Positions 17,745 to 40,337 of a DNA stretch of 64,000 nucleotides are shown here, in pieces (the stretch's first letter is position 1; each line of letters begins with the position of its first letter). The position numbers were made by a program, and so were the translations under genes. The stretch is from the NCBI GenBank assembly GCA_001794215.1, contig MGJK01000012.1, positions 80,818-144,817 on the forward strand. Direction: 5' to 3'. A model generated the notes under the pieces. It searched no databases and was not told the DNA's origin. It worked only from the letters and a program-made list of their open reading frames with translations. The DNA comes from Candidatus Yanofskybacteria bacterium RIFCSPHIGHO2_01_FULL_44_24. GTDB taxonomy: Bacteria > Patescibacteriota > Minisyncoccia > 2-02-FULL-40-12 > GWA2-44-9.

Positions 17745-17821
17745 CCCGAGCCCTCGTTGTTAAAGAATCAATCTACCAGACTATATCAGATCATTCATGA
17801 TTGTCCAGAGATCCGGCTTAC

Positions 17822-18200
17822 GTTAGGGAGGGCTCGATCTATAGGGCACGGCATAAATTTCTGGTGAAATTTTGCCTTTTGCTCGCCTCGGCCAGTCTGC
17901 GCAAATCCCTATAAATCAGGCCCTCCCTAACGATCAGGTAGCCAAATCAATTATTATTTTAGGGATTTACGCAAAACTACATAGCGAGCCCCCTTGTCTA
18001 TCTGAGGCATTTGAGACCCCGCCCCTTGCATGGTTCTGAAGGGGCGGGGCGAACATAGCTGAGTCCCGTCGTTGGCGGGACGGAGGCGTGCTGAAGATAG
18101 ATAGGGGGTGAGTAAAATTTATGGCATGCCTCGAATAAGCCAAGGCTGAGAGGCTTTTATGTCGTGCTCGAAAGAGACTTGCTTATCGGCTTATTAGCAT
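17822..18200. repeat. Modular intergenic repeat element, locus B (about 108-nt unit bounded by 11-bp perfect inverted repeats)
   Basis: ttagggagggc (17823-17833) and gccctccctaa (17920-17930) flank a segment containing tatagggcacggcataaa and gcgcaaatccct. The locus also holds a GC-only 9-bp hairpin ccccgcccc/ggggcgggg (18017-18049), gcatttgagacccc, and cctcgaataagccaaggctgag (18129-18150). Confidence 0.75.
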
Positions 18201-18269
18201 GATGTGTCTTGATTTTTCGGTACAAATTGGTTAGTATAATAACGCTTTTATCCCACAAGGAGTGAAGGC

Positions 18270-26138: not shown

Positions 26139-27929
26139 ATGCCAGACAATGACGAACAATTAATAGTACTTGGTGAAACCAACTTCAGAAACCACAGGTC
26201 TCGTTTCGGAATAAAGACCGACGATCGGAGGCGCCATATGTATGTCGTCGGTTCAACCGGCATGGGCAAGTCGGAATTTTTGAAGAATATGGCCATTCAG
26301 GACATTGAAGCCGGCCATGGCGTGGCGTTTATCGATCCTCACGGCGATCCGTCCAACGACCTTCTCGATCATATACCCGCCCATAGAATCAAAGACGTTA
26401 TTTATTTCGACCCCGGAGACTTAGAGTACCCGATTGCATTCAATGTGATGGAGGGCGTCGGTTTTGATTACCGTCATTTGGTAGCCAGCGGTTTGGTCGG
26501 AGTATTCAAAAAAATATGGGGAGTTGAGGCGTGGTCCGGAAGAATGGAATATATTCTTAACAATACCATCTTGGCTCTCTTGGAGTATCCGGATTCTACC
26601 TTATTAGGAATAAACCGGCTGATGTCGAATAAAGAATACCGCAAGAAAGTCGTTTCTTCGCTCAAGGACCCGATCGTAAAAGGGTTCTGGGTGGAGGAGT
26701 TCGCAAAGTATGCCGATAAGTTCGCCACAGAAGCTACGGCCGCCATTCAGAATAAAGTCGGTCAGTTCTCTTCCAACAATCTGATCAGGAACATCATTGG
26801 CCAGTCAAACTCCAAATTAGATATCAGGAAAATAATGGATGAGGGGAAAATCCTCATTGCCAACGTTTCGCGGGGTAAAATAGGAGAAGACGCCTCCCGT
26901 CTTTTAGGAGCCTTCTTGGTCACCAAGATCCAGTTAGCGGCTATGTCCCGGGTTGATATTCCTGAGAACAAAAGGCGCGACTTTTATCTTTATGTCGACG
27001 AATTTCAGCACTTTGCCACGGAATCATTCGCCAACATTCTTTCCGAGGCGAGAAAATTCCATTTAAGCCTGACCATGGCCCATCAGTATATCAAACAGAT
27101 GGAAGAGCCGGTCAGGGATGCCGTTTTCGGCAACGTCGGAACCATCGTGACATTCAGAGTCGGAGCGGAGGACGCTGAATTTTTAGAAAAATGGTTTGCT
27201 CCGGATTTTATGATGGCGGATATAGTGAATCTTGGAAAATACAATATATATCTCAAGCTGATGATAGACGGAATTTCATCAAAGGGTTTTTCGGCTGCCA
27301 CTCTGCCGCCTTTTCCCCCGATGGATAAGAGCAATCGGGAAGCAATCATTGATTATTCCCGAAAGAATTACGGAACGCCGCGGGCCGAGGTTGAGGCCGG
27401 TATCGCCGAATGGGCCGGGATGCTTGAGTCCAAAACCGAGCAGGCAAGAGACGACAGACCGCGCCAATTTCGCGACGACAACAGGTCGGCGCAGAGATTT
27501 GATGACAGACCGCGCGCTCCTCGCTCAAACTACGACGCAGGGAGCAGATATGATAATGGTCCCAGGGATTTTCGTCGCGACGACAGAAGCGGCGGAGGAC
27601 AGGTCCGCGATATAAACAGAGATTTTTCTATTCAACAGCGGGCGCCGGCACCTCAGAAATTTCCGGATAGGCCTCCGGTTCAGCCAAGGCAGCCTATTGC
27701 ACAGCCTATGCCCGAAAGAAAACCCGAGCCAAAATTAGAACTAAAACCGGATTTGCCCAAACCGAAACCATCCGGCCTCTCTTTGGACGAAACTTTAAAA
27801 TCCGGGCCGGTTAATTTCAGGGGCCAAAAAATAGAACCTCGACAGCCCAAAGAAAAGAAAGAGGTTGATACGGGGGAATTGAGGAAGATCTTAGAGGGAA
27901 TGGGCAAGAAGGAGGAACAGAGCGGATAA
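26139..27929 (+). CDS. Type IV coupling protein-like P-loop ATPase (TraD/TraG/VirD4 family-like) with a long disordered R/D- and P-rich C-terminal tail
   Basis: Walker A VVGSTGMGKSEF and Walker B FYLYVDEFQHFA. IYFDPGDLEYPIAFNVME resembles the DP...NPL block of coupling proteins. The C-terminal approximately 170 aa are RDD/RD repeats then PxP-rich. No transmembrane segment. Confidence 0.55.
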   Translation: MPDNDEQLIVLGETNFRNHRSRFGIKTDDRRRHMYVVGSTGMGKSEFLKNMAIQDIEAGHGVAFIDPHGDPSNDLLDHIPAHRIKDVIYFDPGDLEYPIAFNVMEGVGFDYRHLVASGLVGVFKKIWGVEAWSGRMEYILNNTILALLEYPDSTLLGINRLMSNKEYRKKVVSSLKDPIVKGFWVEEFAKYADKFATEATAAIQNKVGQFSSNNLIRNIIGQSNSKLDIRKIMDEGKILIANVSRGKIGEDASRLLGAFLVTKIQLAAMSRVDIPENKRRDFYLYVDEFQHFATESFANILSEARKFHLSLTMAHQYIKQMEEPVRDAVFGNVGTIVTFRVGAEDAEFLEKWFAPDFMMADIVNLGKYNIYLKLMIDGISSKGFSAATLPPFPPMDKSNREAIIDYSRKNYGTPRAEVEAGIAEWAGMLESKTEQARDDRPRQFRDDNRSAQRFDDRPRAPRSNYDAGSRYDNGPRDFRRDDRSGGGQVRDINRDFSIQQRAPAPQKFPDRPPVQPRQPIAQPMPERKPEPKLELKPDLPKPKPSGLSLDETLKSGPVNFRGQKIEPRQPKEKKEVDTGELRKILEGMGKKEEQSG

Positions 27930-28230: not shown

Positions 28231-29502
28231 ATGCCGAGCAAATATTATAAAAAATATATAAGGATTCCGCCGGGCGACAGTATTGATATCAGGAATATTT
28301 TGCCGGTTATAAACCATCCGCTTTTCCAGCGGCTTTTGCATATATCACAGCTCGGGACGACGCTGATGGTTTTTCCGGGAGCGACCCATAACCGACTTGA
28401 GCATGCCTTGGGAGTTTACGCTAAGGCGACCCGATTTTGCCGTAAGATGGCCCGGGAAGGCTTTCTGACAAAGTTTGAATCAGTTAATGTCCCGTTATTC
28501 GGGTTGCTTCATGACATAGGCCATGGCCCGTTTTCTCATGTTATCGAAGAGCTTACGCCTTTGAGTGGAGATGAAAATGAGAACGGACTTAAAGTCGTCC
28601 AGTTTTTTAAAAAAGAAATTAAAAAGGCCGGCGGCGATTACGACTTTATAATTTCTCTGTTTAAGCATAAAAATCCTTTGTATAAGATAATAATGGATAA
28701 GAACGTCGGCATGGATAAGCTTGATTATCTGGAACGGGATACTTACCATACCGGTTTTGGCCAGAGACCCGACATCGAGAGTCTTTTTAACTATTTGATT
28801 TTCTTAAAGGGCAAATTGGTAATCGATAAGAAATCTCTTGAGGCGGCCAAACAGATGCAAAGGCTCTATATATACATGTACAAAGAAGTCTATCTTCATA
28901 AGTCGGCCCTGATAAGCCAGAGGTTTTTGCAGAAGATGATTTCTTTATTCATAAAATTAGAAAAGGTTAACCCAAGAGATCTTTGGCTGATGAATGATGA
29001 GGAGCTGATGGCCAAGATCTATATCCATAACGATAAGAGGATCCAATTTCTGTACCAGTCCTATAGAAACAGGAATCTCCCAAGAACAGGATTAGTTTTC
29101 AGGATGAAAACAAGAAAATTCAGCGAGCGGGTCGCGGGAAAATCCATTAAGGTCATGGAAGAAGATGGGTCGTTTTTCGGTAAATTTTTAGAGCATTCCG
29201 AACCGGAAGACCTTGAGAATCTGGAAGAATTAGTTGGGAAGGCGCTGAAAGTGCCGGTGCATAAGATAGTGATTGTCCCGACCCTCACCCCGTGGCGTTT
29301 TGCTCCGGAAGATATCTTGTATCATGACGACGGCAGTATTCTGTCTCTAAAGAAATATTATCCAGAATATTTTAATGCGTTAAAATCCGAGCTCGGAGAC
29401 TATATGGCGGTCAGGGTCTGTATCGTCGGGAACAGGAGAGTGATCTATAAAAATGCCGCTAAGGTCCGTTCAATTATCAGGAGCTACCTTAAATCTAAAT
29501 AG
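28231..29502 (+). CDS. HD-domain dNTP triphosphohydrolase-like protein (dGTPase/SAMHD1 family)
   Basis: HNRLEHALGV ... GLLHDIGHGPFSH HD motifs in a protein of about 420 aa. Confidence 0.75.
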   Translation: MPSKYYKKYIRIPPGDSIDIRNILPVINHPLFQRLLHISQLGTTLMVFPGATHNRLEHALGVYAKATRFCRKMAREGFLTKFESVNVPLFGLLHDIGHGPFSHVIEELTPLSGDENENGLKVVQFFKKEIKKAGGDYDFIISLFKHKNPLYKIIMDKNVGMDKLDYLERDTYHTGFGQRPDIESLFNYLIFLKGKLVIDKKSLEAAKQMQRLYIYMYKEVYLHKSALISQRFLQKMISLFIKLEKVNPRDLWLMNDEELMAKIYIHNDKRIQFLYQSYRNRNLPRTGLVFRMKTRKFSERVAGKSIKVMEEDGSFFGKFLEHSEPEDLENLEELVGKALKVPVHKIVIVPTLTPWRFAPEDILYHDDGSILSLKKYYPEYFNALKSELGDYMAVRVCIVGNRRVIYKNAAKVRSIIRSYLKSK

Positions 29503-29564
29503 TCGAGATCTAATTTGTCGATCGCTTGGTTTTGTGATATAATTTTTTTGAATTTTTACTGATT

Positions 29565-29663
29565 TATATCCGCCCTTAGCCCCGGCTTCCTGTCGGCTTC
29601 GGTAGGAAATCAAATATATCCGCCCTTAGCCCTGCCTGCCGGCAGGCAGGTCAGTTGGTAGAG
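29565..29663 (+). repeat. Two partial 5' copies of the tRNA-Lys gene; the second is interrupted by a 20-bp perfect palindrome
   Basis: tatatccgcccttagc occurs at 29565-29580, at 29615-29630, and again at the intact tRNA (29913-29928). The second copy reads ccgcccttagc + cctgcctgccggcaggcagg + tcagttggtagag, which is tRNA positions 1-11, the inserted palindrome, then positions 12-24. Confidence 0.8.
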
Positions 29664-29669
29664 ATCAAT

Positions 29670-29909
29670 ATGTATTTTGTATATATTTTAAAAAGCGGCA
29701 AAGACGGCAATTTGTACATAGGCCTTACTAATAACATAGAGAGAAGGTTGAACGAGCATAATCGGGGCAGAAATTTATCTACAAAACACAGGGTGCCGTT
29801 TAAGCTTTTGTATCAGGAGCGGGTAGGTAGTAGAATTGAAGCAAGAAAGCGAGAAAAGTATTTCAAATCAGGAACTGGTCGGGAATGGATCAAAAGTAGC
29901 TTAAGATAA
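29670..29909 (+). CDS. GIY-YIG nuclease superfamily protein (small, UPF0213-like)
   Basis: MYFVYILKSGKDGNLYIGLTNNIERRLNEHNRG... is a canonical GIY-YIG module. The track ORF begins at TTG 29655, inside the duplicated tRNA D-arm segment. Confidence 0.85.
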   Translation: MYFVYILKSGKDGNLYIGLTNNIERRLNEHNRGRNLSTKHRVPFKLLYQERVGSRIEARKREKYFKSGTGREWIKSSLR

Positions 29910-29918
29910 TTTGTATAT

Positions 29919-29991
29919 CCGCCCTTAGCTCAGTTGGTAGAGCAGCTCCCTTTTAAGGAGACGGTCGTAGGTTCGACTCCTACAGGGCGGA
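29919..29991 (+). tRNA. tRNA-Lys (anticodon UUU)
   Basis: Hand-folded: 7-bp acceptor stem ccgccct/agggcgg, D arm gctc-agttggta-gagc, anticodon loop cTTTTaa, T arm gtagg-ttcgact-cctac, discriminator A, and no encoded CCA. Very similar to the E. coli tRNA-Lys(UUU) backbone. Confidence 0.85.
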
Positions 29992-30595
29992 CAATATAAA
30001 AAGTCAGCATTTTTTGGAGTGTTGGCAATTCGGGAATATGCCTTTTTGTATTGTATTTCCTGAATCTCTTTGTTTTGGAACCAAACGTTCCAAAGTAGTG
30101 AATTTATCATTTGATACCTTTTTGAATCTTCGCCATTTAAAAAGTCATTTTTGGCGTTTTTAGCTTGTAAAAATACTTCTTTTGTCCGTTCCAAAGTAGA
30201 TAAGGCGGTTTCCGGATTATCCTTTTTAGTCCGGCTTAACTGATTTTCTAATTCAACCCTCTGATTATTGAGTTCCCTTATCTTATCGTCATATAACTCA
30301 ATTCTAAGGCTTCCAGAGGCCATAGCATCAGCCAGGCGGGATTCTCTTTCGTCTATCAGTTTCAATTCTTTTTGAATACCGGAAATGATAGTTTCAGACC
30401 TATCACTTGCCCCTATCTTCTGTTTGGCCGCCTCATACATGATTTCAATGGCCTCATCATCAAAAGCCAGATCGCCAAGCTTATCGGCAATCATCTTTGT
30501 AATAATTTCTTCCCGCATATATGCCTTGCCCTGTTCGCAAGAACCCTTTCCATTTGTGCAGTAATAATACCTATAACCCTTCTGCCACAGAGTGC
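29992..30595 (-). pseudogene. C-terminal fragment of a large serine recombinase (zinc-ribbon remnant plus coiled-coil region); N-terminal catalytic domain absent
   Basis: The minus-strand frame upstream of the track ORF start reads STLWQKGYRYYYCTNGKGSCEQGKAY-MREEIITKMIADKL... This is the YYxC...C half of the recombinase zinc beta-ribbon, followed by about 180 aa of coiled-coil. An in-frame stop lies just upstream, so there is no resolvase domain. The track ORF 29925-30518 runs antisense through the tRNA, so its last roughly 20 codons are artefactual. Confidence 0.45.
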
Positions 30596-30660
30596 TTTAC
30601 TTAGTTCAAAAACCGTGCTATCGTATAGTGCGGTTTTTAGTTCGTTGAAAAGGAAGCGAT

Positions 30661-31194
30661 ATGTTCACGGAAGATACGCCTAAACATAGCGACCCATCAG
30701 TAGAGCAATTGCTCGTCGATTTCAAAAAACTCAGAAAGATCATTAATGCCGTGAGATCCGGCTCGGTAACAAAGGCCCAGGCAATGGAGTACGAAGTCTC
30801 GGTCAATAAATTATTAAATCATGCCGGGACAGTAGATAGGGTATGCAAAGAAAGAGTCGAGCTATTAGACGGTGCCGACAAGGCCGTAAAAAAATTGGAA
30901 CAATTTGCAGAGAAGCGATTTCCGGCAGATGGAGAGTTCGGGTACCTTATGGTGGTCGAGCTGGACGAATCAATGCCTGGTGGCGAAAGAATATTCATCG
31001 GCGGGGGCAAGAGAAAGCCTGGAGAGGTCGGCGAGCCTTACGAGCCCGGGGTTTATGTGTATTGGGATGTGTATCTCTACGGTTATGCCGACGGCGGTCC
31101 GCACGACAGGCGGATCAATTCTTTGAGGGAAATCAAAGTTACAAATGAACAGTTAAGGAAATTTGTGGAGGCCGCAGAATCTTTGACGCGGTAG
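30661..31194 (+). CDS. Hypothetical protein (island cargo)
   Basis: 177 aa with no motif. Followed by the terminator at 31264-31296. Confidence 0.4.
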   Translation: MFTEDTPKHSDPSVEQLLVDFKKLRKIINAVRSGSVTKAQAMEYEVSVNKLLNHAGTVDRVCKERVELLDGADKAVKKLEQFAEKRFPADGEFGYLMVVELDESMPGGERIFIGGGKRKPGEVGEPYEPGVYVYWDVYLYGYADGGPHDRRINSLREIKVTNEQLRKFVEAAESLTR

Positions 31195-31263
31195 AGTTCT
31201 GAGCTATTCCCGGAGGAGAATCATAAGATTGTATCCAGCATTTTTTCTGATGGCTGAAAAGAC

Positions 31264-31296
31264 GCCGACTAATAAGTCGGCTTTTATTTTTTTTAA
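31264..31296 (+). terminator. Rho-independent terminator
   Basis: gccgactaataagtcggc hairpin followed by a T-run of 8 or more. Confidence 0.65.
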
Positions 31297-31308
31297 ATTC
31301 ATGGTAGC

Positions 31309-31596
31309 TTGTTAAGACAATTTAGTTTTTTAAAAAGGAGAGTCATGAAGATTCCGTATACCCGTATCGAAGCAGGCGAAACAGATATTCCAACCCACCA
31401 AATCGTTAAGCGGATCAGAGATGAGTACTTAGCCAAACTTGGCGGGGAGTTTGTAAGAGAGGTAGGCGGTAAGTACATGTTAATGGAGGAAACACGCACA
31501 TCTCATCGCTTTGAATTTGACGTGAGGGAACTGACCGAAGAAGAAGTAGCAAATTTTCAGGTTATTAATAGGCTCATTGTTTTCTTCATGAAATGA
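31309..31596 (+). CDS. Hypothetical protein (island cargo)
   Basis: Likely start at the internal MKIPYTRIEAG, preceded by a strong aaaaggagag RBS. Followed by the terminator gccggcagttagccggc+ttttt at about 31615-31637. Confidence 0.4.
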   Translation: MLRQFSFLKRRVMKIPYTRIEAGETDIPTHQIVKRIRDEYLAKLGGEFVREVGGKYMLMEETRTSHRFEFDVRELTEEEVANFQVINRLIVFFMK

Positions 31597-31614
31597 CCCT
31601 GACAACAGATTCGA

Positions 31615-31637
31615 GCCGGCAGTTAGCCGGCTTTTTA
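31615..31637 (+). terminator. Rho-independent terminator
   Basis: gccggcagttagccggc hairpin followed by ttttt. Confidence 0.6.
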
Positions 31638-31747
31638 TGAGAATATTTACGTGCAGCTTACTGCGCGTTCAAGTTTAAGTTTAAGTTGACAATATATCGT
31701 GAGGATGATATCCTATTTAAAAGTTCGTTTCACAATAAGGAATAAAA

Positions 31748-32122
31748 ATGTCCGGAAATCGCAAGACCCCCATTTACGTGACGGTAGGCAATTTTTGGAA
31801 AGAGGTCGAAGAGGCCGGACACAGGGTCGGAATGCCTCCGGAATTAATCAGCTGTCTCCGGGTTCTTATAGGATCGCACATCCATTCTCAAATGGGTCCT
31901 CGGGCGTCTCCTCATCTGATACGGCTGGCCAAAGAGTATGTTCTTGGCGGAGTTGTTATATCCGATTTTGTGAGAGAGGAAGAGCGTGTTCTTGAGGTGA
32001 TGGTTTTTATACCGAAGTTTAATCCTGATCCGGAAAAAGTCGGGCATCCGTTTTTCAAGCTCGTACCTACTTATTCAAACGGAGTGCTTCGGCGCCTTCA
32101 AGATATTTTGCCCGAAGATTAG
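31748..32122 (+). CDS. Hypothetical protein (island cargo)
   Basis: 124 aa. Preceded by an aaggaataaaaATG RBS. Followed by the terminator aaccgac...gtcggtt+tttt at about 32126-32156. Confidence 0.4.
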   Translation: MSGNRKTPIYVTVGNFWKEVEEAGHRVGMPPELISCLRVLIGSHIHSQMGPRASPHLIRLAKEYVLGGVVISDFVREEERVLEVMVFIPKFNPDPEKVGHPFFKLVPTYSNGVLRRLQDILPED

Positions 32123-32234
32123 CTTAACCGACCGAGATCAGAGTTAGTCGGTTTTTGATTGGAAAATACTTTACAAACTTTGTTGGAAGTGATACCTTGA
32201 CCCTGCCTTTTTAAGCAATCAAAACGAGGAGCCG

Positions 32235-32474
32235 ATGAGGATTTACTGGGACGCCAAGAGCCGAGGAACCAAAGCCGAGATCGTTCAGGATATGGAAAAT
32301 GATGCCGCCCGGCTGTTGGCGGAATCTGAGCCGGAATCGCACATTAGAGTAGGAGTTGAAAGGGTGTTCATTTATCCTTCCAGTTACGGCGTTAGCGGGT
32401 ACTCTTTGACCCTTGAAGATTTAGAAAGACTTGCTCAGGCGCTTAGGGCAAACAGCACAGACAGTTTTGCTTAA
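32235..32474 (+). CDS. Hypothetical small protein (island cargo)
   Basis: 79 aa. Followed by the terminator ccccacagaacgggg+ttttt at about 32475-32496. Confidence 0.35.
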   Translation: MRIYWDAKSRGTKAEIVQDMENDAARLLAESEPESHIRVGVERVFIYPSSYGVSGYSLTLEDLERLAQALRANSTDSFA

Positions 32475-32544
32475 CCCCACAGAACGGGGTTTTTGTTTAG
32501 GCATGCTCTAACCAAAAAGCGGGCAATGCCCGCCGAAACAACAG

Positions 32545-32994
32545 CTACCTTTTTCGAGGCTTCGAGAAGCAGATTCTTGTCGAAGCTTTTTTATTGGAAT
32601 TGACGTGAGGCGCAAATTCCGCGGCCGTATAGGTATCGACGTTAACGATTACGTGGCCGCGAGTCTCGTCTGAAACCAACGCGACAGCTCTGATCAGGTG
32701 CTCATCTCCAGAGATGGGTCGAAGAAAATGCGTAGTTAGGGTCTGAGCCGGAGTATGGAACTCTTCTTCCGAAACGGGGATGGTGCTCATCGCGGCATAG
32801 ACTCCGGCGAAGTCTGCGATTACGTCAATGACGCCTCCTTGGACGATTCGCTTGCCGGCAATAAGAAATTCTGGCCGGATCAGGGCGGTTAAGACCGCAT
32901 ATCCTTTTCCGATCTTTTCAAGCTTTATGTCCATAAAGATTACCAGGGGCTCCGTATCGAACCTTTGTCTCAGCTGATCAATCCGCTCGTTCAT
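32545..32994 (-). CDS. PaaI/4HBT-like hotdog-fold thioesterase
   Basis: 149 aa. Central GKRIVQGGVIDVIADFAGVYAA resembles the PaaI-type thioesterase helix. Followed on the minus strand by a gcgggcattgcccgc+tttttt terminator. Confidence 0.5.
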   Translation of the reverse strand: MNERIDQLRQRFDTEPLVIFMDIKLEKIGKGYAVLTALIRPEFLIAGKRIVQGGVIDVIADFAGVYAAMSTIPVSEEEFHTPAQTLTTHFLRPISGDEHLIRAVALVSDETRGHVIVNVDTYTAAEFAPHVNSNKKASTRICFSKPRKR

Positions 32995-33015
32995 GGACTT
33001 TCTCCTTTTTCGGCT

Positions 33016-33378
33016 TCAGCCTATGAGATCGTTGACCCGTAAGCTGATTTTATGTTCAACGGTGATTCCGCCGCAGTTAAGGAGCAAAACCCTTCTGAGG
33101 GAGGATTCTTTCGGGTCGGAGACTGAGATGCTGACTTCGTATCGAGGCTCGGGATAAAGTTTGGCGTAGGCATTTCTCAGTTCTTGGGCGAAGCCGTCTA
33201 CAGTTCCTCCGCGATGGGCGACGAGCTCCGTTTCGCTGGTTCTTCTCAAGAAATTACGGGAGCTGTACCGGACTTCAACCAGAATGGGTTTGTCGTTCAT
33301 TGTTTTCTCGGTTGTGTGAAAGAGCAAAGATAAATTACTATAACCATATCCGTCTGTCAACCCTTCAGTTGACACCAT
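33016..33378 (-). CDS. Hypothetical protein
   Basis: 120 aa. Likely start at the internal MNDKPILVEV. Confidence 0.3.
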   Translation of the reverse strand: MVSTEGLTDGYGYSNLSLLFHTTEKTMNDKPILVEVRYSSRNFLRRTSETELVAHRGGTVDGFAQELRNAYAKLYPEPRYEVSISVSDPKESSLRRVLLLNCGGITVEHKISLRVNDLIG

Positions 33379-33437
33379 GATAACTTTTATCTATAATATG
33401 CGGTAGTTTCATTTACATCTTTAGAATAGGAAAACGA

Positions 33438-33986
33438 ATGGATCAGACAGGTTTGGCTCTCAGTAACGACTTAGTCGGTCTGCTGGATAGTCTTAAGAAC
33501 GAGGCTCTCAAAGTGATAGAAGTGCCCAAGTTTCGTATACCGTTTTGGCCAAAAGGCCTTATGTGCATCTCGGATCTTGGAAAGAGAGGGTACCGCGTTC
33601 CTTCCGAGGATTCAAACGGCTTGCTCTCCTGGAAAAAAGGCAAGCACAAGATCTCCTTTGTCGTAGGAGTAGACGGCGAGATAAGATTCGAGTTCCGCGG
33701 GATGTTTAAACAATGGAGAAAATTCCCCGTCTTTTCTTCGGTGCAGGTTAGTGACGGTTACCGCGGATATTATGACTCCCCGGTTTACCAGGCTTCTTCC
33801 GACCACGATAGTAGTAATATCTCACGGTTGGGAGCGTTAGAGCTGTTTGATCAATTCAAGGTGGAAATTCTTTCTCTTGCGCTTGAGACAATCCGAACTT
33901 CTGAACATAAAGAAGTGGCCGAATCGGTCAAGAAAGCTTTCGAACCCTTTGTGCCGTTTGTTGTGGCGGATATGCTGTTGAAGTGA
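33438..33986 (+). CDS. Paralog 1 of a novel ~180-aa protein family, motifs EVPKFRIPFWPKG ... LFDQFKVEIL ... VKKAFEPFVPFVVADML
   Basis: Shares N-terminal, central and C-terminal blocks with the ORFs at 37075-37602 and 37599-38147. No transmembrane segment and no known domain. Confidence 0.5.
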   Translation: MDQTGLALSNDLVGLLDSLKNEALKVIEVPKFRIPFWPKGLMCISDLGKRGYRVPSEDSNGLLSWKKGKHKISFVVGVDGEIRFEFRGMFKQWRKFPVFSSVQVSDGYRGYYDSPVYQASSDHDSSNISRLGALELFDQFKVEILSLALETIRTSEHKEVAESVKKAFEPFVPFVVADMLLK

Positions 33987-33993
33987 GAATCAG

Positions 33994-34596
33994 ATGATCG
34001 GCGTTCTTACCCTTGATAATTTAAGAAGTTACGCTCGTTGGGGCAAATTAGGGAAGATAGATTTTTTTCAGCATAATTTGAGCCGTCGCGCATACCCCAG
34101 TCTGTCGGATTTACACAAGCTGATTGTTCAAATGGCGGATCAGTATGGTTTAAGAGAGGAAAATGTTTTAGCCGTTGTTGCCATCGGTTCGGCTATTCAT
34201 CCCTCGAAATTCAAGAACAGCTATAGTATAAGGCGGAGGTTCTTCCTGTTCGGGCCTCTACGGGCTAAGCATAGAATCGTCCAGATAGCCCCTAATGACT
34301 TTGATTTTTTGGTGTTAACGGACCGTGATTTAGAGGCGAAAGGGGCCTGGATGAGGAAAGGTAAAATCCACCTGATAAACCGGAGTATCGGACAGATTCT
34401 TAGGTGTCGCGAGAATGGAGATACGGTGAGTATCAATGCTCTGCGCCGGGGGGTTATGATTTTTCGGACTTTTCTTTTTGAAGATAATGATTGGGCCAAT
34501 CTCGGCATCCGGGCAGGCGTTAAACGGGATGCATCGAGACCTCGGGCTTACTATTATAAGGGTCCTCACAAATATCTGGAGATCAGCGTAGGTTGA
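33994..34596 (+). CDS. Hypothetical protein with a weak nucleotidyltransferase-like GS ... DxD pattern
   Basis: VVAIGSAIHPSKF ... NDFDFLVLTDRD. The GS-to-DxD spacing is longer than in canonical minimal NTases, so the assignment is tentative. Immediately downstream of paralog 1. Followed by the terminator gaggagttcagaacgaactcctc+tttatttt. Confidence 0.3.
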   Translation: MIGVLTLDNLRSYARWGKLGKIDFFQHNLSRRAYPSLSDLHKLIVQMADQYGLREENVLAVVAIGSAIHPSKFKNSYSIRRRFFLFGPLRAKHRIVQIAPNDFDFLVLTDRDLEAKGAWMRKGKIHLINRSIGQILRCRENGDTVSINALRRGVMIFRTFLFEDNDWANLGIRAGVKRDASRPRAYYYKGPHKYLEISVG

Positions 34597-34783
34597 GAAG
34601 ATCGAGGAGTTCAGAACGAACTCCTCTTTATTTTACTCCGTAATACGGCAAGATTGGCAAATCAGCCGTTCTGCCATAGCCTACACTCCATTCCCGGTAT
34701 CATCCATAAAGCTCTTGACTTTATTAGTATTTTAATTTAAAATATGGCCACAAGTTCATTGTCAATTCAAAGAGAAAACAAAC

Positions 34784-35773
34784 ATGAGACCGAAAGAAGT
34801 CAGCGCGTTTTTGAAGTCTCTCACGCACTATTCTAAGGCCCCCGCGGTCTTTATCTGGGGTCCTCCCGGAGTAGGGAAGTCGAGAGTATGCGAGCAGGTG
34901 GCCCGGGAGGAGAACATGGGCTTTGTCGATTTGAGATTGGCTTTGATGGATCCGACCGATCTTCGGGGCATTCCTGTTCCGGAAAACGGTAAGGCCCAAT
35001 GGTTGGCCCCCTCGGCATTACCCACGGAAGGCAGGTGGATCATCCTCCTGGATGAATTTAACCTTGCTCCTCCGCTTGTGCAGTCGTCCGCTTATCAGCT
35101 TGTGCTTGACCGTAAGCTTGGGGAATACACACTACCCAAGGAATGTCTTGTGATCGCCGCCGGGAACAAAACCGAACATGGCGCCAATACATTCAAGATG
35201 GCGATGCCTCTCCGCAACCGATTCGTCCACATTGATTTCGAAACCCATATTGACGACTGGAGAGAATGGGCGATCCGAAACGAAATAGAATCGGAAGTCG
35301 TAGAATTCATCAGTTTCCGGCCGGACCTTCTTTTTCAGTTTGATCCGCGAAGGCAAGAGAATGCTTTTCCTACGCCTCGAAGCTGGGAATTTACTTCGCA
35401 AATCATAAAGAGCAGAAATGGCTTGGGTGAAGAAATTGTCCAGAAAGTAATTGAAGGGACTGTCGGTGCGGGAGCGGCAACGGAGTTGAAAAGCTACCGT
35501 CAAATGAAGGCAAATCTGCCGTCCATCGACAGTATTCTTAAGGGTGAAGACTATGCTCCCGAACAGGCCGATCTCGCCTGTGCCGTTGCCACCGCTCTTG
35601 TTATCAGGGCCAATGCGGATCAATTCGACAGGGTACTGCGCTATTCCGAAAAGCTTCAGGCTGAAATCACCGTACTGATCGGCAAGCTTCTTGCCGTCAA
35701 AGACAAGCAATCTCTGATGAAGTGCTCCTACTGGGCTACCTGGTCTAAGAAGCATTACGGCCTTATAGGATAA
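34784..35773 (+). CDS. MoxR-family AAA+ ATPase (AAA_5 / CbbQ-NorQ-GvpN-like)
   Basis: Walker A GPPGVGKS, Walker B ILLDEFN, sensor-1 AAGN, and RNRF. About 330 aa, the MoxR size. Confidence 0.85.
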   Translation: MRPKEVSAFLKSLTHYSKAPAVFIWGPPGVGKSRVCEQVAREENMGFVDLRLALMDPTDLRGIPVPENGKAQWLAPSALPTEGRWIILLDEFNLAPPLVQSSAYQLVLDRKLGEYTLPKECLVIAAGNKTEHGANTFKMAMPLRNRFVHIDFETHIDDWREWAIRNEIESEVVEFISFRPDLLFQFDPRRQENAFPTPRSWEFTSQIIKSRNGLGEEIVQKVIEGTVGAGAATELKSYRQMKANLPSIDSILKGEDYAPEQADLACAVATALVIRANADQFDRVLRYSEKLQAEITVLIGKLLAVKDKQSLMKCSYWATWSKKHYGLIG

Positions 35774-35782
35774 GGGCTGATC

Positions 35783-37078
35783 ATGAGTGGAAATAAGGCG
35801 GTCAGAGAAAGGATAATCAGGGAAAGGGTTCAGCTCCTGCTTCATCGTCCCTTTTTCGGGTATCTCACTCTAAGTCTTGATCTGAAAGAAGAGCTTGGAA
35901 TACCTACTATGGCGACAGATGGAACTCGCCTTTACTATAATCCGGCTTTTGTGGATGGGCTTGATCCTAAAGTTCTTCAGATGATTCTTGCCCATGAAAC
36001 GCTTCATTGCGCCTTGGGCCATCTCTGGAGGCTTGAAAAACGTAATCGTGAAAAGTGGAATTATGCCACCGACTATGCGATCAATTTGATGCTGAAAAAA
36101 GAAGGATTCACGGTGCCGGCCAATTGTTTATGCGACGATAAATTTGACGGTATGTCGGCTGAAGAGATATATCACAGACTGCCTGATCAAAAACCCAAGG
36201 GGTCTTTAGTCAGCTCTCACGATAAATGGCCGGGTAAGAATAAGTGTAAGGATAAAGAGAACAAGAAGGCGTCTCAGACTCCGCAAGATAAAAGCGGTGA
36301 AGGGGGAGATAAAAAGCCTGAGAATCAGGGCCAGCAGAGTAAAGACGATTCTAAAGAGGATGGGAGCGGGGGCGACAATAAAGACAGGATTGAAGGCGAT
36401 CAGCCTCAGTCCGCCCCGCCCCAAATTTTAAGTGGCGACGATCAAGAGGAGCTTGTGAAAGAGTGGCAAGATAAACTGATCCGCGCCGCTAATGCGGCAA
36501 GAATGCAGGGTAAATTGCCCGGCAGGATGGGTCAGCTTATCCAGGATGTTCTTGAGCCTAAGCTCGACTGGAAGGTAATCCTGAAGGATTTAGTCACTTC
36601 TTTGGTCCGAAACGATTTTCGTTTATTTCCGGCCTCAAAGAAGCATCTTTGGCGTAATATCTATCTGCCTTCCCTTCACGGTGAGTTGATAGAATTAGCC
36701 GTAGGCATAGATACTTCCGGCTCAGTTTCTGATGAGCAATTCCAGGAGCTGATTGCCGAAGTGCGGGGCATTGCCGAGCAATTTGAGAATTTCACCCTTC
36801 ACTTGTTTTTCTGCGATACAGAGATCCACGACCGGATGACCATCTCATCTAACGACGTATGGCCGGATAAATTTACCAAAAATGGAGGCGGTACGAGTTT
36901 TGTTCCGGTGATAGAGCTGATCGACAAAGAGCTTCCGCATATTGCCGGACTGGTCTACCTTACTGACGGGGATGGAGCGTATCCTAAGAATCCGCCGGAC
37001 TATCCGGTGATCTGGGTGCTTAATAAAGATAAGGTCATGCCCTGGGGCGAGAGCATTAAGATGGAGGAGGCCCGATGA
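35783..37078 (+). CDS. VWA-domain protein with an N-terminal zincin-like HExxH domain (DUF2201-like) and an acidic/K-rich linker
   Basis: AHETLHCALGH contains an HExxH motif in the N-terminal domain. The C-terminal GIDTSGSVSDEQ is a MIDAS DxSxS motif in a VWA-like fold. Start is 10 nt after the AAA gene stop, the classical MoxR-VWA pairing. Confidence 0.8.
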   Translation: MSGNKAVRERIIRERVQLLLHRPFFGYLTLSLDLKEELGIPTMATDGTRLYYNPAFVDGLDPKVLQMILAHETLHCALGHLWRLEKRNREKWNYATDYAINLMLKKEGFTVPANCLCDDKFDGMSAEEIYHRLPDQKPKGSLVSSHDKWPGKNKCKDKENKKASQTPQDKSGEGGDKKPENQGQQSKDDSKEDGSGGDNKDRIEGDQPQSAPPQILSGDDQEELVKEWQDKLIRAANAARMQGKLPGRMGQLIQDVLEPKLDWKVILKDLVTSLVRNDFRLFPASKKHLWRNIYLPSLHGELIELAVGIDTSGSVSDEQFQELIAEVRGIAEQFENFTLHLFFCDTEIHDRMTISSNDVWPDKFTKNGGGTSFVPVIELIDKELPHIAGLVYLTDGDGAYPKNPPDYPVIWVLNKDKVMPWGESIKMEEAR

Positions 37079-37602
37079 CACCGACTCAAAATCTTTCCGA
37101 ACTCAAAACATACCTTGATCAGTTTAAAGAGGAGATGGCTCAAATTGATATCCGGAATCTTCAGGAAATTCCCAAATTTCGTATCCCTAATTGGCCGGAA
37201 GAAGCAGGGTCTGTGGCGGTTGACTTCTGGTTCAGAGAGCTAATGTATCCTTGCCGGGGCGAGGCATCTTCCATGCTGAACGTTCGAAGAAAAAGGGTGC
37301 GTCATATGAGGGTTGAAATATATCATGGACTTATCTACATAACCAAGATGCATTTGAATTCAAGCAACCAGGCTTTTCAATCCGACAATCTTACCGGGCT
37401 TAATCGCACCAATTGTTTCATTATTTTCCATCAGCTTATCGACCCGATTTGCAGGGCAATAATCAAAAAGCTTAAGAAGAGATATCGTAAGTTCAAGGAT
37501 GAAGCGGAGCAATATAACAGAGTCTGTGACGCCGTCAAAAAATCCTTCGAACCTCTGATCCCTTTCATTGTGGCGGATATTTTGGAAGGGGAGGAAGGAT
37601 GA
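37075..37602 (+). CDS. Paralog 2 of the novel ~180-aa family (EIPKFRIPNWPEE ... VKKSFEPLIPFIVADIL)
   Basis: Start overlaps the VWA gene stop (ATGA), suggesting translational coupling. Conserved terminal motifs are retained, the middle is divergent. Confidence 0.5.
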   Translation: MTPTQNLSELKTYLDQFKEEMAQIDIRNLQEIPKFRIPNWPEEAGSVAVDFWFRELMYPCRGEASSMLNVRRKRVRHMRVEIYHGLIYITKMHLNSSNQAFQSDNLTGLNRTNCFIIFHQLIDPICRAIIKKLKKRYRKFKDEAEQYNRVCDAVKKSFEPLIPFIVADILEGEEG

Positions 37603-38147
37603 CAAGTTCCATTTCGATAGTCCCGATGAGTAAGGCTAACATGGGCGAGGAATTTTCCGGGATTGAGTTTCAGGATATCAATGTTCCAAAGTTCAAAATT
37701 CCAAACTGGCCCAAAGGGGTAGGCATATCCCTTAAGTTAAGCAAGAGGCCGTATCATATTCCCGTGGAGTCTGACGGCAAGTACCTATGGTATAGGAATA
37801 AGCATAGGCTGTTCGTTGAGATAACGGGCGAGGGCTTCATCAGGTTTCAGTTCTTGCGCGCCGTCCTTGGATTAAGGCCGGCCCAATTTTGCGGTAGCTA
37901 CGCATCCAACGGCTATACGGTAAGTTGGTTAGATGTCGGCCATTACTGGGTTGATTCCGGTGCGGACGACTTACCGAGAAGGCTACCCGCCCTGATGTTG
38001 TTTGACCAGTTCAAGGTCAACATTCTTCTGGAGCTGGTTTCGAAGCTGAAGAACGATTCTGCGATACATAATCAGGTTGTTGAAGAAGTCAAGAAAGCCT
38101 TCGAACCCTTTGTGCCGTTTGTTGTTATGGATCAGTTACTGTCATAG
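37599..38147 (+). CDS. Paralog 3 of the novel ~180-aa family (NVPKFKIPNWPKG ... LFDQFKVNIL ... VKKAFEPFVPFVVMDQL)
   Basis: Overlaps paralog 2 by 4 nt. The paralog closest to paralog 1 across the full length. Confidence 0.5.
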   Translation: MTSSISIVPMSKANMGEEFSGIEFQDINVPKFKIPNWPKGVGISLKLSKRPYHIPVESDGKYLWYRNKHRLFVEITGEGFIRFQFLRAVLGLRPAQFCGSYASNGYTVSWLDVGHYWVDSGADDLPRRLPALMLFDQFKVNILLELVSKLKNDSAIHNQVVEEVKKAFEPFVPFVVMDQLLS

Positions 38148-38318
38148 GACGAGAGCAAGATAATTTCTTGCTCTTTTTGTTTAGCTAAAAGCCCAAAAGA
38201 AGGATAAAATATCAGAGTATTTATCATTTTTGTCAAATTTTTTGTTCCTTGTGGAGGTTCTGCGGGAGTGGTATTTTTAATGTATACTGGTTAACAAAAT
38301 CAAATCAGCCTGCTTACT

Positions 38319-39161
38319 ATGAGCAACTCCAACAAAAGATTGAAATACGCCAAACACCATGCCGAGACAGTCTATGTGGGCGAATATATAGATCTCAAGA
38401 AAGTTCAGGAGGGCATCAGGCACTATGTTTATCTTAATCGCGATCATCCGCTGGTCATCCGGGTTTTAAAAGAGCAATATGTGGTTTTGACCAAATTCGG
38501 AGCTGTTACATTTTGGAACGTTTCCCAGCGTTTAAGGAAGGAATTTTTAAAAGAAATCATACCCTTTGTCAAGAATAAAAAGACCAACTATCCTTACGAC
38601 GAAGAAACCAAGGTTTTTATAGGCGGCGAAGTTGAAAAAATAACTTTCGATACCGTCTATCTCACCAAACTCGAACCGAGCGAGATCAAGATCATCTCCT
38701 ACGTCCTATCCCAGTCAGTCGCATTGGAGCGCTACGAGGATGAGATAGAAGCTAATCTTTCCGAGATCGGAGTTATCGTGGAAAATCTGAAATCGACCGG
38801 ACGAGCCATGCTTAACGAACGAGGGCTCTTGAAGCAAATCGGCAATGTTCTGTCGGTAAAGCAAACGGCGGTTGCGCATTTGTCTCTGTTTGATAAGCCG
38901 GAAGAGGTTTGGGAGTCTCCCGGACTGGAGAGTCTCTACAACAGAATGAATTTCGAATATGAGCTACAAGATAGATTCGACATTCTTGATGAAAAAATTA
39001 AGTATCTTTCCGATATTTCCCAGATGCTTATGAATTTTTTGGCTGAAAAACGAAACGCTTTTTTGGAGACCATTATTATACTTTTATTTGTTGTTGATTT
39101 AGGCCTCTGGTTCTTGCCTCCTTTTCCGGAAGTATTGACCTACATTCGCTCGCTGTTTTAA
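38319..39161 (+). CDS. DUF155/RMD1-like protein with a C-terminal transmembrane helix
   Basis: 280 aa. Overall architecture is a soluble domain with ETIIILLFVVDLGLWFL at the C-terminus, resembling DUF155. Assignment made by pattern only. Confidence 0.4.
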   Translation: MSNSNKRLKYAKHHAETVYVGEYIDLKKVQEGIRHYVYLNRDHPLVIRVLKEQYVVLTKFGAVTFWNVSQRLRKEFLKEIIPFVKNKKTNYPYDEETKVFIGGEVEKITFDTVYLTKLEPSEIKIISYVLSQSVALERYEDEIEANLSEIGVIVENLKSTGRAMLNERGLLKQIGNVLSVKQTAVAHLSLFDKPEEVWESPGLESLYNRMNFEYELQDRFDILDEKIKYLSDISQMLMNFLAEKRNAFLETIIILLFVVDLGLWFLPPFPEVLTYIRSLF

Positions 39162-39323: not shown

Positions 39324-40337
39324 ATGCATGAATATCCGGAAGCTGATATACTGGGCGTGCCCCGCAAGCTTCTAAAAATCGGCGTTTTAATGGGCGGGCC
39401 TTCGTCTGAGCACGAAGTCTCTTTGGCTACGGGAAAGAATATTATCGGCAACCTGGATAGTACGAAATACCAGCCGGTTGCGATAAAAATATCCAAAAAG
39501 GGGCAGTGGTCTTTAGGTGGTCAGATCGTTGATATGCCCGCGGCATTGAAATCGGTTGATATCGTCTTTAACGCTCTTCACGGTACTTTTGGCGAAGACG
39601 GAAGGGTCCAGGCTCTCATGGAATATTACAATACGCCGTATACAGGGTCAGGCATTACCGCTTCGGCTTTAGCCATGGATAAGCTAAGGAGCAGGGAGAT
39701 TTTTAAATTAGCCGGTTTTTGCGTTCCCAAAACATTGAAACTGAAACGGGGTGAAAATTACGAAGCAAGACTGAACCTCTTTGTCAATAAAGTAGTCAAG
39801 TTTCCGGTGGTAGTTAAGCCCTGCTCAAACGGGTCGTCGGTAGGAGTCAAAATAGTCGACAGTCCGGCCGATTTAGAGCCAGCCATTCAGGAAGGTTTTA
39901 AGTTAGACAAGAAAGTGCTGGTTGAGGAGTACATTAAGGGCAGGGAGCTGACCTGCGGCGTGCTCGATAATTTTAACAATCAGCCCGTTGCCGCTTTGCC
40001 GGTGACCGAAATCACTCCGGTAAACGGCCACAGATTTTTTAATTATGACTCCAAATACAAAGACGGGCAGGCAAAGGAGATAACGCCGGCTTTCGTCGAT
40101 AGTGTAATATATTCAAAAGCTCAGGAAATTGCTTTGACCGCGCATCAGATTTTAGGTTGCCGGGGATATTCAAGAACTGACATGATCTGGACCCCCGGAA
40201 ATAATGATGTTTATATTCTTGAAGTAAATACGCTTCCAGGCCTCACTCCCAACTCATTGCTTCCCAAGGCGGCTCAATCTTCGGGTCTGTCGCTTGCACG
40301 GCTTCTCGATGCCATAATCGAAAGTTCGAGGGACTAA
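39324..40337 (+). CDS. ddl: D-alanine--D-alanine ligase
   Basis: KIGVLMGGPSSEHEVSL ... HGTFGEDGRVQALMEYYNTPYTGSG ... ATP-grasp C-terminus ending LARLLDAII. The likely start lies a few codons downstream of the track start. Confidence 0.9.
   Translation: MHEYPEADILGVPRKLLKIGVLMGGPSSEHEVSLATGKNIIGNLDSTKYQPVAIKISKKGQWSLGGQIVDMPAALKSVDIVFNALHGTFGEDGRVQALMEYYNTPYTGSGITASALAMDKLRSREIFKLAGFCVPKTLKLKRGENYEARLNLFVNKVVKFPVVVKPCSNGSSVGVKIVDSPADLEPAIQEGFKLDKKVLVEEYIKGRELTCGVLDNFNNQPVAALPVTEITPVNGHRFFNYDSKYKDGQAKEITPAFVDSVIYSKAQEIALTAHQILGCRGYSRTDMIWTPGNNDVYILEVNTLPGLTPNSLLPKAAQSSGLSLARLLDAIIESSRD

Follow-up and report, generated by a model that had tools for sequence, protein, structure and literature searches.

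A variable island beside tRNA-Lys in a Candidatus Yanofskybacteria genome, read as a probable mosaic of independently acquired pieces

The ends of tRNA genes are classic targets of tyrosine integrases, and large serine recombinases (LSRs) normally target intragenic or intergenic sites. In SCCmec (staphylococcal cassette chromosome mec), the Ccr LSRs integrate a circular element at the rlmH (orfX) 3' end, and the cassettes form composite, decaying arrays. The segB gene lies in the tRNA cluster of phage T4. The mobile elements of bacteria in the candidate phyla radiation (CPR) are poorly known. Islands and hotspots linked to tRNA genes are produced by site-specific integrative elements and include tyrosine-integrase islands and tycheposon-type hotspots (bioRxiv 10.1101/2020.12.28.424599). 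Small integrative rolling-circle replicons and integrative mobilizable elements have been reviewed (PMC5704250), and free-standing GIY-YIG homing endonuclease genes that lie by tRNA genes have been described, as with SegB of phage T4 (PMC2988022; PMC13096335). Here we analyzed a 64-kb stretch of contig MGJK01000012.1 from the groundwater-derived CPR genome of Candidatus Yanofskybacteria bacterium RIFCSPHIGHO2_01_FULL_44_24, in which an island of accessory DNA lies between a tRNA-Lys gene and the conserved genes DUF155, ddl and aspS.

An earlier sequence-only reading of this stretch had proposed that the island is one decayed integrative element. Our analysis leads us to a different account, which we regard as reasonably probable: the island is a tRNA-adjacent hotspot mosaic of at least four independent pieces, namely the relic of a small element encoding a rolling-circle replication initiator (Rep) and an LSR, a group of ORFan units, a MoxR/VWA cassette and a GIY-YIG insertion. 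The anatomy of the locus, the homologies of its parts, the absence of its genes from relatives and the differing contexts of the pieces were observed directly. Throughout, the window is the whole 64-kb stretch, coordinates are positions in it, and L-numbers denote loci of other genomes or contigs. The names parA, parB, parC and nt200 (200 aa) and the h-numbers, in which the figure is the length in amino acids, are working names.

A hypervariable interval beside tRNA-Lys

To place the island in context, we used the HD-domain protein encoded upstream of the tRNA to search one genome per species and recovered 14 Yanofskybacteria/Parcubacteria loci, with HD proteins 61-80% identical. The genes for the TraG-like ATPase and the HD protein are kept in all 14 relatives, an orthologous tRNA-Lys adjoins the HD gene in 11, and ddl and/or aspS lie downstream in most; L009 keeps the full DUF155-ddl-aspS order. 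The interval from HD to ddl/aspS measures 9.8 kb in the window versus 1.3-6.6 kb in the relatives, and it differs in every genome. In the comparison with relatives that the sequence-only reading had called for, the island genes are absent from the locus in every relative: the window genes at 30661-38147 had no tblastn match there in any of the 14, and no relative carries the same genes at this position without a tRNA or integrase. Among 82 open reading frames (ORFs) from this interval in the 15 genomes, we found only four cross-genome homologue pairs, none of which includes a window gene. The gap between HD/tRNA-Lys and DUF155-ddl-aspS is a hypervariable integration hotspot, and the region is lineage-specific accessory DNA that forms a real island next to a tRNA.

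The boundaries of the island, at the tRNA 3' end and at ~38.19-38.32 kb, are supported. ARAGORN and Rfam agree that the tRNA-Lys(UUU), which had been placed at 29919-29991, is the sole tRNA of the window, and the Rfam search of the window returned no other match. On the far side the core genes resume at ~38.3 kb as previously described, with DUF155, ddl and aspS running from 38319 in synteny with the relatives.

Three further features of the relatives' loci were recorded. The orthologous tRNA-Lys next to HD lies on the opposite strand in 4 of the 11 relatives that have it (L008, L012, L014 and L018); this difference from the window, L007, L009 and others points to inversions of the DNA around the tRNA. 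ARAGORN labeled the tRNA-Lys orthologues of L011 (9026-9099), L012 (9125-9198) and L015 (11704-11777) as "tRNA-Stop (tta), position 35"; the anticodon loop CUUUUAA is the same as in the window, so that the label is probably a register artefact and a suppressor tRNA is improbable. In L016, an N6/N4 DNA methyltransferase gene stands beside a PD-(D/E)XK-like gene at 17402-18734, between the HD gene and the Rep-LSR genes described below, and the two are probably a restriction-modification pair.

A recombinase relic and its intact relatives at tRNA 3' ends

The tRNA-proximal edge of the island is occupied by a 588-bp minus-strand relic that begins 6 nt past the tRNA 3' end. Its frame of 196 open codons contains YRYYYCTNGKGSCEQ, has an in-frame stop just upstream and runs antisense into the tRNA, such that the final ~25 codons of the relic's ATG-initiated ORF are the antisense of the tRNA. 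Read from 30584 to 29997, the relic gives a gapless alignment with residues 288-483 of the intact LSR of L024 (484 aa) at 68% identity, and with those of the L025 LSR at 59%. It also matches positions 396-563 of the 651 in the PHROG_95 'integrase' profile (E=2.8e-13). Residues 1-287 of the intact LSR left no trace in the window when searched by tblastn with intact homologues, the recombinase-like frame had no match to Pfam Resolvase (the N-terminal catalytic domain with the serine nucleophile), and the Recombinase domain (PF07508) was absent from the window by both Pfam and tblastn. Only the second half of the zinc beta-ribbon is present (YRYYYCTNGKGSC), and its Pfam Zn_ribbon_recom match (E=0.0066) reaches 17.3 bits, below the cutoff of 25.3. 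A tblastn search of the phage collection with the relic gave no match. Because the collinear homology covers the C-terminal part without the catalytic part, we conclude from these alignments that the feature is the relic of an LSR family member and not a functional member. The sequence-only reading had already described a truncated LSR here, with a zinc-ribbon remnant, a coiled coil, an in-frame stop and no catalytic domain; the alignment to intact LSRs bears this description out, and the PHROG_95 match provides the similarity to serine recombinases in a profile search.

We gathered homologues of the LSR by protein search and one metagenome scan. At eight loci (the window and seven others) the LSR gene converges on a tRNA gene, with a gap of 6-10 nt between its end and the tRNA 3' end, and the encoded C-terminus is PKNADF, or PKDADF in L025/L026. 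Five kinds of tRNA are involved: Lys in the window and L023, Pro in L024, Gln at three loci (L025/L026 and L022), Ser in L027 and Asp in L021. The L024 and L025/L026 copies are intact, those of L027 and L016 run off a contig or locus end, and that of L021 is frameshifted. The copies of the window, L022, L023 and L035 are truncated at the N-terminus, at four different points (residues 288, ~335, ~354 and ~242). Three domains (Resolvase, Recombinase and Zn-ribbon) are present in the intact homologues of L024 and L025, which match PHROG_95 at 1.6e-77. Among named NCBIfam models, the L024 LSR fits CcrB (E=2.7e-27) and CcrA (4.6e-22) best, with both scores far under the curated cut-offs. Any plasmid-borne LSR is 25-29% identical, and a scan of viral contigs for the LSR family returned no relatives.

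Upstream sequence was on hand for three loci, L025, its near-duplicate L026 and L016, and all three show a Rep gene. In L025 an 80-aa ORF and a gene for a 243-aa rolling-circle Rep precede the LSR gene in the same direction. This Rep matches Pfam REP_ORF2-G2P (3.9e-13) and PHROG_3419 and is 27-35% identical to replication initiators of Microviridae, which makes it distantly microvirus VP4/G2P-like. The L026 contig starts inside the 80-aa ORF and encodes the same Rep at 100% identity. In L016, a Yanofskybacteria relative, a trio in the same order (77-aa ORF, Rep, LSR) lies 8.5 kb downstream of the HD gene. The conserved core of 80-aa ORF, Rep and LSR spans ~2.5 kb. Neither Rep nor the 80-aa ORF left a tblastn trace in the window. 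We found no description of tRNA-targeting LSR/Rep elements in CPR bacteria in the literature searchable here.

Truncated copies of the relic are found next to different DNA in different genomes. L035 is 99.8% identical to window 29922-30388 and unrelated beyond 30388. The L023 relic shows 88% nucleotide identity over window 29964-30443 and breaks at the equivalent of 30443. Different small genes lie between the relic and ddl in L023, and its ddl and aspS proteins are only 61% and 58% identical to those of the window despite the 88% nucleotide identity of the relic. For the window and L023 relics the ratio of nonsynonymous to synonymous divergence (dN/dS) is 0.12 with dS at 0.52, which argues that the two copies diverged mostly as functional genes under selection. 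As judged from these sequences, the divergence fits related elements that integrated separately at one tRNA and were later truncated separately. A further contig, L034, is 99.94% identical to window 29919-31681 and wholly different upstream of the tRNA.

The sequences flanking these copies have features of their own. Positions 1-616 of the L035 contig, which comes from the same aquifer, are unrelated to the window from 30389 onward and contain a 118-aa ORF. A near-perfect inverted repeat of ~100 nt (cgcgcttttatatggcc...ggccatataaaagcgcg) adjoins the truncated recombinase relic of L023 at 9870-9985 and could be an element resembling a miniature inverted-repeat transposable element, or a structured RNA. 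At L034 1700-1810, which corresponds to window 29919 and the DNA upstream of it, the unrelated DNA has its own promoter-like site, and G7 of the tRNA stands opposite A66 in a hybrid acceptor stem. This junction suggests recombination inside the tRNA gene or a chimeric assembly.

Together, these arrangements suggest how the relic could have arisen. A small circular replicon would have been inserted by its own LSR directly at the 3' end of the tRNA gene. The LSR gene would thereby come to converge on the tRNA and stop 6-10 nt short of it, and the invariant last LSR codons (PKNADF) may also act as an arm of the attachment site. The Rep gene and the catalytic LSR half would then have been lost through later insertions or deletions on the side away from the tRNA, and the part of the relic that abuts the essential tRNA would have survived. 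We infer the chemistry of integration and excision, and the order of these events, from the compared sequences.

The cassette, the small gene units and the GIY-YIG insertion

After the tRNA, the genes of the island follow in the order recombinase frame (minus strand), h177, h95, h124 and h79 (all plus strand), the pair of h120 and a 149-aa protein (minus strand), then parA, nt200, MoxR, VWA, parB and parC (Table 1).

Table 1. Coordinates of the features of the tRNA-Lys locus in the 64-kb window.
Feature	Position	Strand	Remarks
TraG/VirD4-like ATPase	26139-27929		upstream conserved flank
HD-domain hydrolase	28231-29502		upstream conserved flank; Pfam HD and HD_assoc_2
Promoter-like site	29515-29543	+	TTGTCG-17-TATAAT with TG
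Copy 1 of tRNA 5' end	29565-29580	+	TATATCCGCCCTTAGC (5-nt leader and tRNA positions 1-11)
Copy 2 of tRNA 5' end	29615-29663	+	split by 20-nt palindrome CCTGCCTGCCGGCAGGCAGG (29631-29650), then tRNA positions 12-24 (TCAGTTGGTAGAG)
GIY-YIG nuclease gene	29670-29909	+	79 aa, catalytic domain only; PF01541 E=7e-16
tRNA-Lys(UUU)	29919-29991/2	+	intact; ARAGORN; Rfam tRNA 68.5 bits
LSR relic	29997-30584	-	588 bp; second half of zinc ribbon, coiled coil, C-terminal PKNADF
h177	30661-31194	+	near-ORFan single-gene unit; terminator 31264-31281
h95	31309-31596	+	83 aa by gene callers; single-gene unit; hairpin and T-run 31614-31632
h124	31748-32122	+	single-gene unit; promoter-like site 31686-31714; hairpin and T-run 32126-32153 (long loop)
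h79	32235-32474	+	single-gene unit; terminator 32473-32491
h120 and 149-aa hotdog/PaaI-like protein	32545-33378	-	two-gene unit, 33378-33016 then 32994-32545; terminator 32534-32518; hotdog/PaaI assignment plausible
First cassette operon	33438-34596	+	parA (182 aa) and nt200 (200 aa); terminator 34604-34626
Second cassette operon	34784-38147	+	MoxR, VWA, parB, parC; terminator 38151-38175
MoxR-type AAA+ ATPase	34784-35773	+	Pfam AAA_5 4e-07, AAA_3 2e-05
Zincin-like and VWA protein	35783-37078	+	DUF2201 type; DUF2201_N (HExxH) 9e-48, DUF2201 2e-24
parB	37075-37602	+	175 aa
parC	37599-38147	+	182 aa
DUF155 gene	38319-39161	+	first conserved flank gene downstream
ddl	39324-40337		after DUF155
aspS	40720-42108		after ddl

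The right half of the island is a cassette of ~4.8 kb (33.4-38.19 kb) made up of two operons. The MoxR and VWA genes are 9 nt apart, and parA, parB and parC are mutual paralogues. The sequence-only reading had recognized a MoxR/VWA cluster here, which is confirmed by the AAA_5/AAA_3 and DUF2201_N/DUF2201 matches; the two proteins also match PHROG_1297 and PHROG_1314 (E=7e-95 and 7e-103). Homologues of the VWA protein at ~32% identity occur in 767 phage records, jumbo phages among them, and a viral contig scan for this protein returned no relatives. PADLOC gave only weak, nonspecific P-loop matches for MoxR (DolB 7e-5, IetA 7e-3), nothing for VWA, the par proteins or nt200, and nothing specific for the small genes. 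No model in Pfam, PHROG or PADLOC covers the par family, and phage records contain no homologue of it. An AlphaFold 2 (AF2) model of parA, with a predicted local distance difference test (pLDDT) score of 73, has a beta-sheet core and C-terminal helices; Foldseek found no PDB match to it at E<=0.001, and the top hits were Ran-binding/PH-like domains at a probability of <=0.3. For nt200, a Pol-beta-type nucleotidyltransferase (GS...DxD) was a guess made by eye and is unsupported. TALE repeats, which came up in a PDB profile search with the nt200 alignment, were rejected as a summed-repeat artefact with zero significant stretches. No description of DUF2201 function was found in the literature searchable here.

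The par/MoxR/VWA core was found in three other contexts (L028/L029, L030/L031 and L032/L033), with one to three extra par copies, and nt200 homologues are present in L028/L029 and L030/L031 and not in L032/L033. In L028/L029 the cassette stands directly beside a different intact LSR (36% identical), and in L030/L031 and L032/L033 it stands beside an ornithine/arginine decarboxylase gene and polysaccharide genes. L028 and L030 share 82% nucleotide identity over 4 kb (93% protein identity for MoxR and 88% for VWA) and have different flanks. The MoxR protein of the window is 80% identical to the L028/L030 copies and only 52% identical to that of L032, the closer relative by HD and TraG-like identity. 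The right end of cassette homology coincides just past the terminator in the window (38186), L028 and L030. On these comparisons, we regard the cassette as a conserved and mobile module with several paralogues, centered on an ATPase/VWA pair that is common in phages. It would move among Parcubacteria as a promoter-to-terminator module, and a role in conflict would be speculation.

Two side observations concern the cassette. A perfect sigma-70 consensus, TTGACA-17-TATAAT (12/12), lies at 33369-33397, 41 nt upstream of parA, and is the only 12/12 site in the 55 kb scanned. In L002 (metagenome-assembled genome GCA_001794475.1 in GenBank, MGJW01000018.1), a run of N at 16602-16621 replaces 72 bp at the start of MoxR; the gene is uncalled because of this run, and what looked like a 52-bp deletion in MoxR is only apparent.

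To the left of the cassette, the ORFan units at 30.66-33.38 kb comprise four single-gene units and one two-gene unit, each of which has its own promoter-like site and terminator and would have been acquired independently. For h177 there are just 3 non-self clusters among 1.84 billion representative proteins, h95 has no Pfam or PHROG match, and the six small genes, like the par proteins and nt200, returned nothing usable from Pfam or PHROG. The 149-aa protein has a hotdog domain match at E=5e-4, with Pfam 4HBT at E=0.025 and PDB 3e1e at E=0.48. Its NCBIfam matches fall under the respective cutoffs, with PaaI TIGR02286 (E=1e-4) at 22.5 bits against 118.9 and TIGR00369 at 20.1 bits against 36.6, and a single-sequence AF2 model was unusable (pLDDT 38). 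On these profile matches, the hotdog/PaaI assignment is plausible.

Terminator-like hairpins with T-runs follow h177, h79, the thioesterase-like gene, nt200 and parC; those after h95 and h124 were judged by eye. Their density in the island is ~0.9/kb, versus ~0.25-0.45 good hairpins per kb elsewhere in the window, and genome-wide such sites likewise exceed shuffles. The sequence-only reading had noted a hairpin and T-run after most units, which agrees with what we found. It had also counted five small genes before the thioesterase, where we found four on the plus strand. Its description of the island as single-gene units holds for h177, h95, h124 and h79, and fails for the operons of h120 with the thioesterase-like gene, parA with nt200, and MoxR-VWA-parB-parC. 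The PaaI-like thioesterase that it named is present as the 149-aa gene with weak PaaI/hotdog matches, all of them below the curated cut-offs.

The remaining piece lies on the 5' side of the tRNA. The 79-aa GIY-YIG protein has no DNA-binding or target-recognition domain, as its catalytic domain spans it from end to end, and it also matches the NCBIfam group I intron endonuclease N-terminus (E=9e-5). Upstream of the gene are two partial copies of the tRNA 5' end within a 50-nt tandem unit (82% identity). The 16-mer TATATCCGCCCTTAGC has three exact copies in the window (29565, 29615 and 29914), with a chance expectation of 0.02. In copy 2 a palindrome is inserted exactly at tRNA position 11/12; the GIY-YIG ORF comes next and is followed by the intact tRNA. 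Compared with shuffles, the duplicated region has an only modestly more stable fold (z=-2.4). The promoter-like site at 29515-29543 has an analogue in L034, where TTGTCT-17-TATAAT lies directly upstream of that contig's own tRNA. By this likeness, the site probably served originally as the promoter of tRNA-Lys and now precedes a tRNA 5' fragment. All relatives lack a GIY-YIG gene between HD and the tRNA, and ~90 bp separate the two in relatives. The free-standing gene may have inserted within the 5' part of the tRNA gene and brought a replacement tRNA 5' end that kept the tRNA intact. The arrangement resembles an insertion of the homing type in which the tRNA was restored, and the gene would have spread in a homing-type manner.

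Related genes were seen by other tRNAs and at other loci. A 41%-identical GIY-YIG homologue at L020 2840-3110 is bracketed by 19-nt inverted repeats (ATCCCGCTCTTGAGAATCC / GGATTCTCAAGGGCGGGAT), which may be the ends of a cassette. Genes of the LAGLIDADG type, some of which encode an N-terminal helix-turn-helix, adjoin tRNA-Lys or tRNA-Gln in L009 (12392-13222), L011 (9105-9941) and L025 (10658-11428). The tRNA flanks in these genomes seem to attract several classes of homing-type genes.

Competing accounts and comparison with described systems

The chief alternative to a mosaic is the single decayed element of the sequence-only reading, in which the whole 8.2 kb from the tRNA to ~38.19 kb would be borne by one LSR, the small genes and the cassette would be cargo, and an internal deletion would have taken the LSR N-terminus, Rep and the 80-aa ORF. 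Such an element would account for the position of the relic at the tRNA-proximal edge, the constant place of the family's integrase, and for a right edge of the island that is at once the end of the cassette and the start of the conserved genes. It would also fit L016, where 8.5 kb of unique genes, including the methyltransferase and PD-(D/E)XK pair, lie between HD and the 77-aa/Rep/LSR trio, and L028, where the cassette directly adjoins an intact, different LSR. Against it, the far end shows no att-like repeat or inverted tRNA-side junction, and the cargo genes occur at no other locus with this LSR family. L035 and L023 carry the relic with other neighbors and other truncation points, and the L030 and L032 cassettes have no recombinase at all. 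Two parts of the earlier claim therefore stand, the LSR remnant beside the tRNA and the lineage-specific nature of the DNA. The idea of a single unit is not supported, in view of a 2.5-kb core without shared cargo, differing relic neighbors, a separately mobile cassette and GIY-YIG gene, the lack of a far-end repeat and a weak compositional signal. The GIY-YIG gene, which had been counted as part of the same decayed element, is present as described but sits 5' of the tRNA, away from the relic and with its own 5'-end duplication. We consider the single element unlikely, and it keeps this much credit because the L016 and L028 LSRs adjoin comparable cargo and the element ends are unmapped.

Two other explanations are less consistent with the data. 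The truncated recombinase might be a retained, expressed protein, made up of the coiled coil and perhaps part of the zinc ribbon, which hinders related elements from integrating or excising at this tRNA. Its 196-codon frame is open, four independent N-terminal truncations keep the C-terminal part beside a tRNA (window, L022, L023 and L035), and dN/dS is low between the window and L023. However, a low dN/dS is equally expected if the divergence took place in active elements and predates the truncations, and the differing truncation points keep no common domain boundary. A complete zinc ribbon is needed for DNA binding in characterized LSRs, and the window and L023 copies do not have one. We judge a retained protein quite improbable. 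Alternatively, no horizontal acquisition occurred; the region would be ancestral to Yanofskybacteria and lost or scrambled in the sampled relatives, and the recombinase fragment would be noise. Composition near the genome average and the presence of the cassette family in other Yanofskybacteria (L032, probably L030) are in keeping with this, but every island gene is missing at the locus in all 14 relatives, cassette similarity is incongruent with host kinship (80% to L028/L030, 52% to L032), h177 is nearly without homologues anywhere, and the recombinase fragment is strongly and collinearly homologous to intact LSRs. An ancestral origin is accordingly very hard to credit.

Several observations weigh against the mosaic that we favor. 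No excised circle, empty site or activity was observed. The tRNA 3' end and the tRNA/LSR junction sequence have no second copy in the window, direct or inverted, and the best local matches are no better than shuffles; the direct repeat of the tRNA 3' end suggested for the region near 38.2 kb was not found. Likewise, no second attachment site or element end was identified in the window or on the far side of the L025 element. With no end located, an intact element may be larger than its conserved core and may have room for cargo. As evidence against a single element, the missing second junction is weak, because LSRs do not make long repeats. The island's GC and codon usage are also barely off those of the flanks. 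As the sequence-only reading had proposed, we compared the two: GC (0.473 in the island vs 0.445 in the flanks, p=0.005) and GC at third codon positions (p=0.03) are slightly shifted, but synonymous codon usage is not distinguishable (p=0.22). Tetranucleotide usage across the 64 kb deviates most in the two 4-kb segments that cover 32-38 kb (z=2.6 and 2.5). Such a composition would fit transfer from related Parcubacteria and does not decide the matter. Moreover, most of the related sequences are metagenome contigs, some of them very short, and L034 and L035 are possibly chimeric assemblies. Finally, the unique genes of L016 and the cassette beside an LSR in L028 give an LSR element that carries cargo some share of the probability.

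A broader joint reading can also be put forward. An undescribed family of minimal CPR integrative replicons (80-aa ORF, microvirus-like rolling-circle Rep and LSR), with an attachment site overlapping the last LSR codons and precise insertion at the 3' ends of variant-specific tRNAs, would seed hypervariable islands; the relics would be kept as a block to re-integration (attachment-site immunity), and the par/MoxR/VWA cassette would be a mobile conflict system. We think it doubtful that all of these statements hold together.

A variable island by a tRNA is routine, and this one is ordinary as such; the tRNA-targeting LSR/rolling-circle element is what is worth following. If the account given here is true, the LSR family at different tRNA ends would be a natural retargeting series, with an attachment arm in its own stop-proximal codons, and Rep plus LSR would make up an integrative replicon of CPR bacteria that ranks among the smallest. 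On the tRNA genes of these reduced genomes, selfish DNA of three kinds would cluster: GIY-YIG/LAGLIDADG genes, Rep-LSR elements and promoter-to-terminator cassettes. The MoxR/DUF2201 cassette would offer a defined movable unit for studying a phage-common pair without a known function.

The locus resembles described tRNA-linked islands in that accessory DNA lies by a tRNA with an integrase remnant at the tRNA-proximal edge, content varies among close relatives, and pieces decay and are replaced. It departs from the tyrosine-integrase type in having an LSR, no direct repeat of the tRNA end, and content most of which is not tied to the integrase. With SCC cassettes it shares an LSR that, as we infer here, integrates circular DNA at the 3' terminus of a conserved housekeeping gene, and CcrB and CcrA are the best named NCBIfam matches. 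In contrast to SCC, the target is a tRNA end that varies by family member, there is one recombinase gene and not a pair, and the core of ~2.5 kb includes a rolling-circle Rep. Like the integrative rolling-circle replicons (PMC5704250), the element combines a minimal replication initiator with a site-specific recombinase and can sit integrated in the chromosome. Unlike them, it has a Rep of the REP_ORF2-G2P type, no recognized relaxase or oriT, a CPR host and a recombinase ORF that reaches the attachment junction.

The other two pieces have counterparts in phages. The cassette contains the same two genes as the phage pair of MoxR and DUF2201 'metallopeptidase-VWA' (PHROG_1297, PHROG_1314), but here they lie inside a cassette with 2-4 copies of a 175-182-aa family that is lacking in phage records. 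The GIY-YIG gene is, like SegB-type genes, a stand-alone gene in or by tRNA DNA that relatives lack at this site, a pattern expected of a homing-type selfish gene. It differs from them in its 79 aa without a DNA-binding domain, its location on a bacterial chromosome, and the tandem tRNA 5' duplication and 20-nt palindrome that accompany it.

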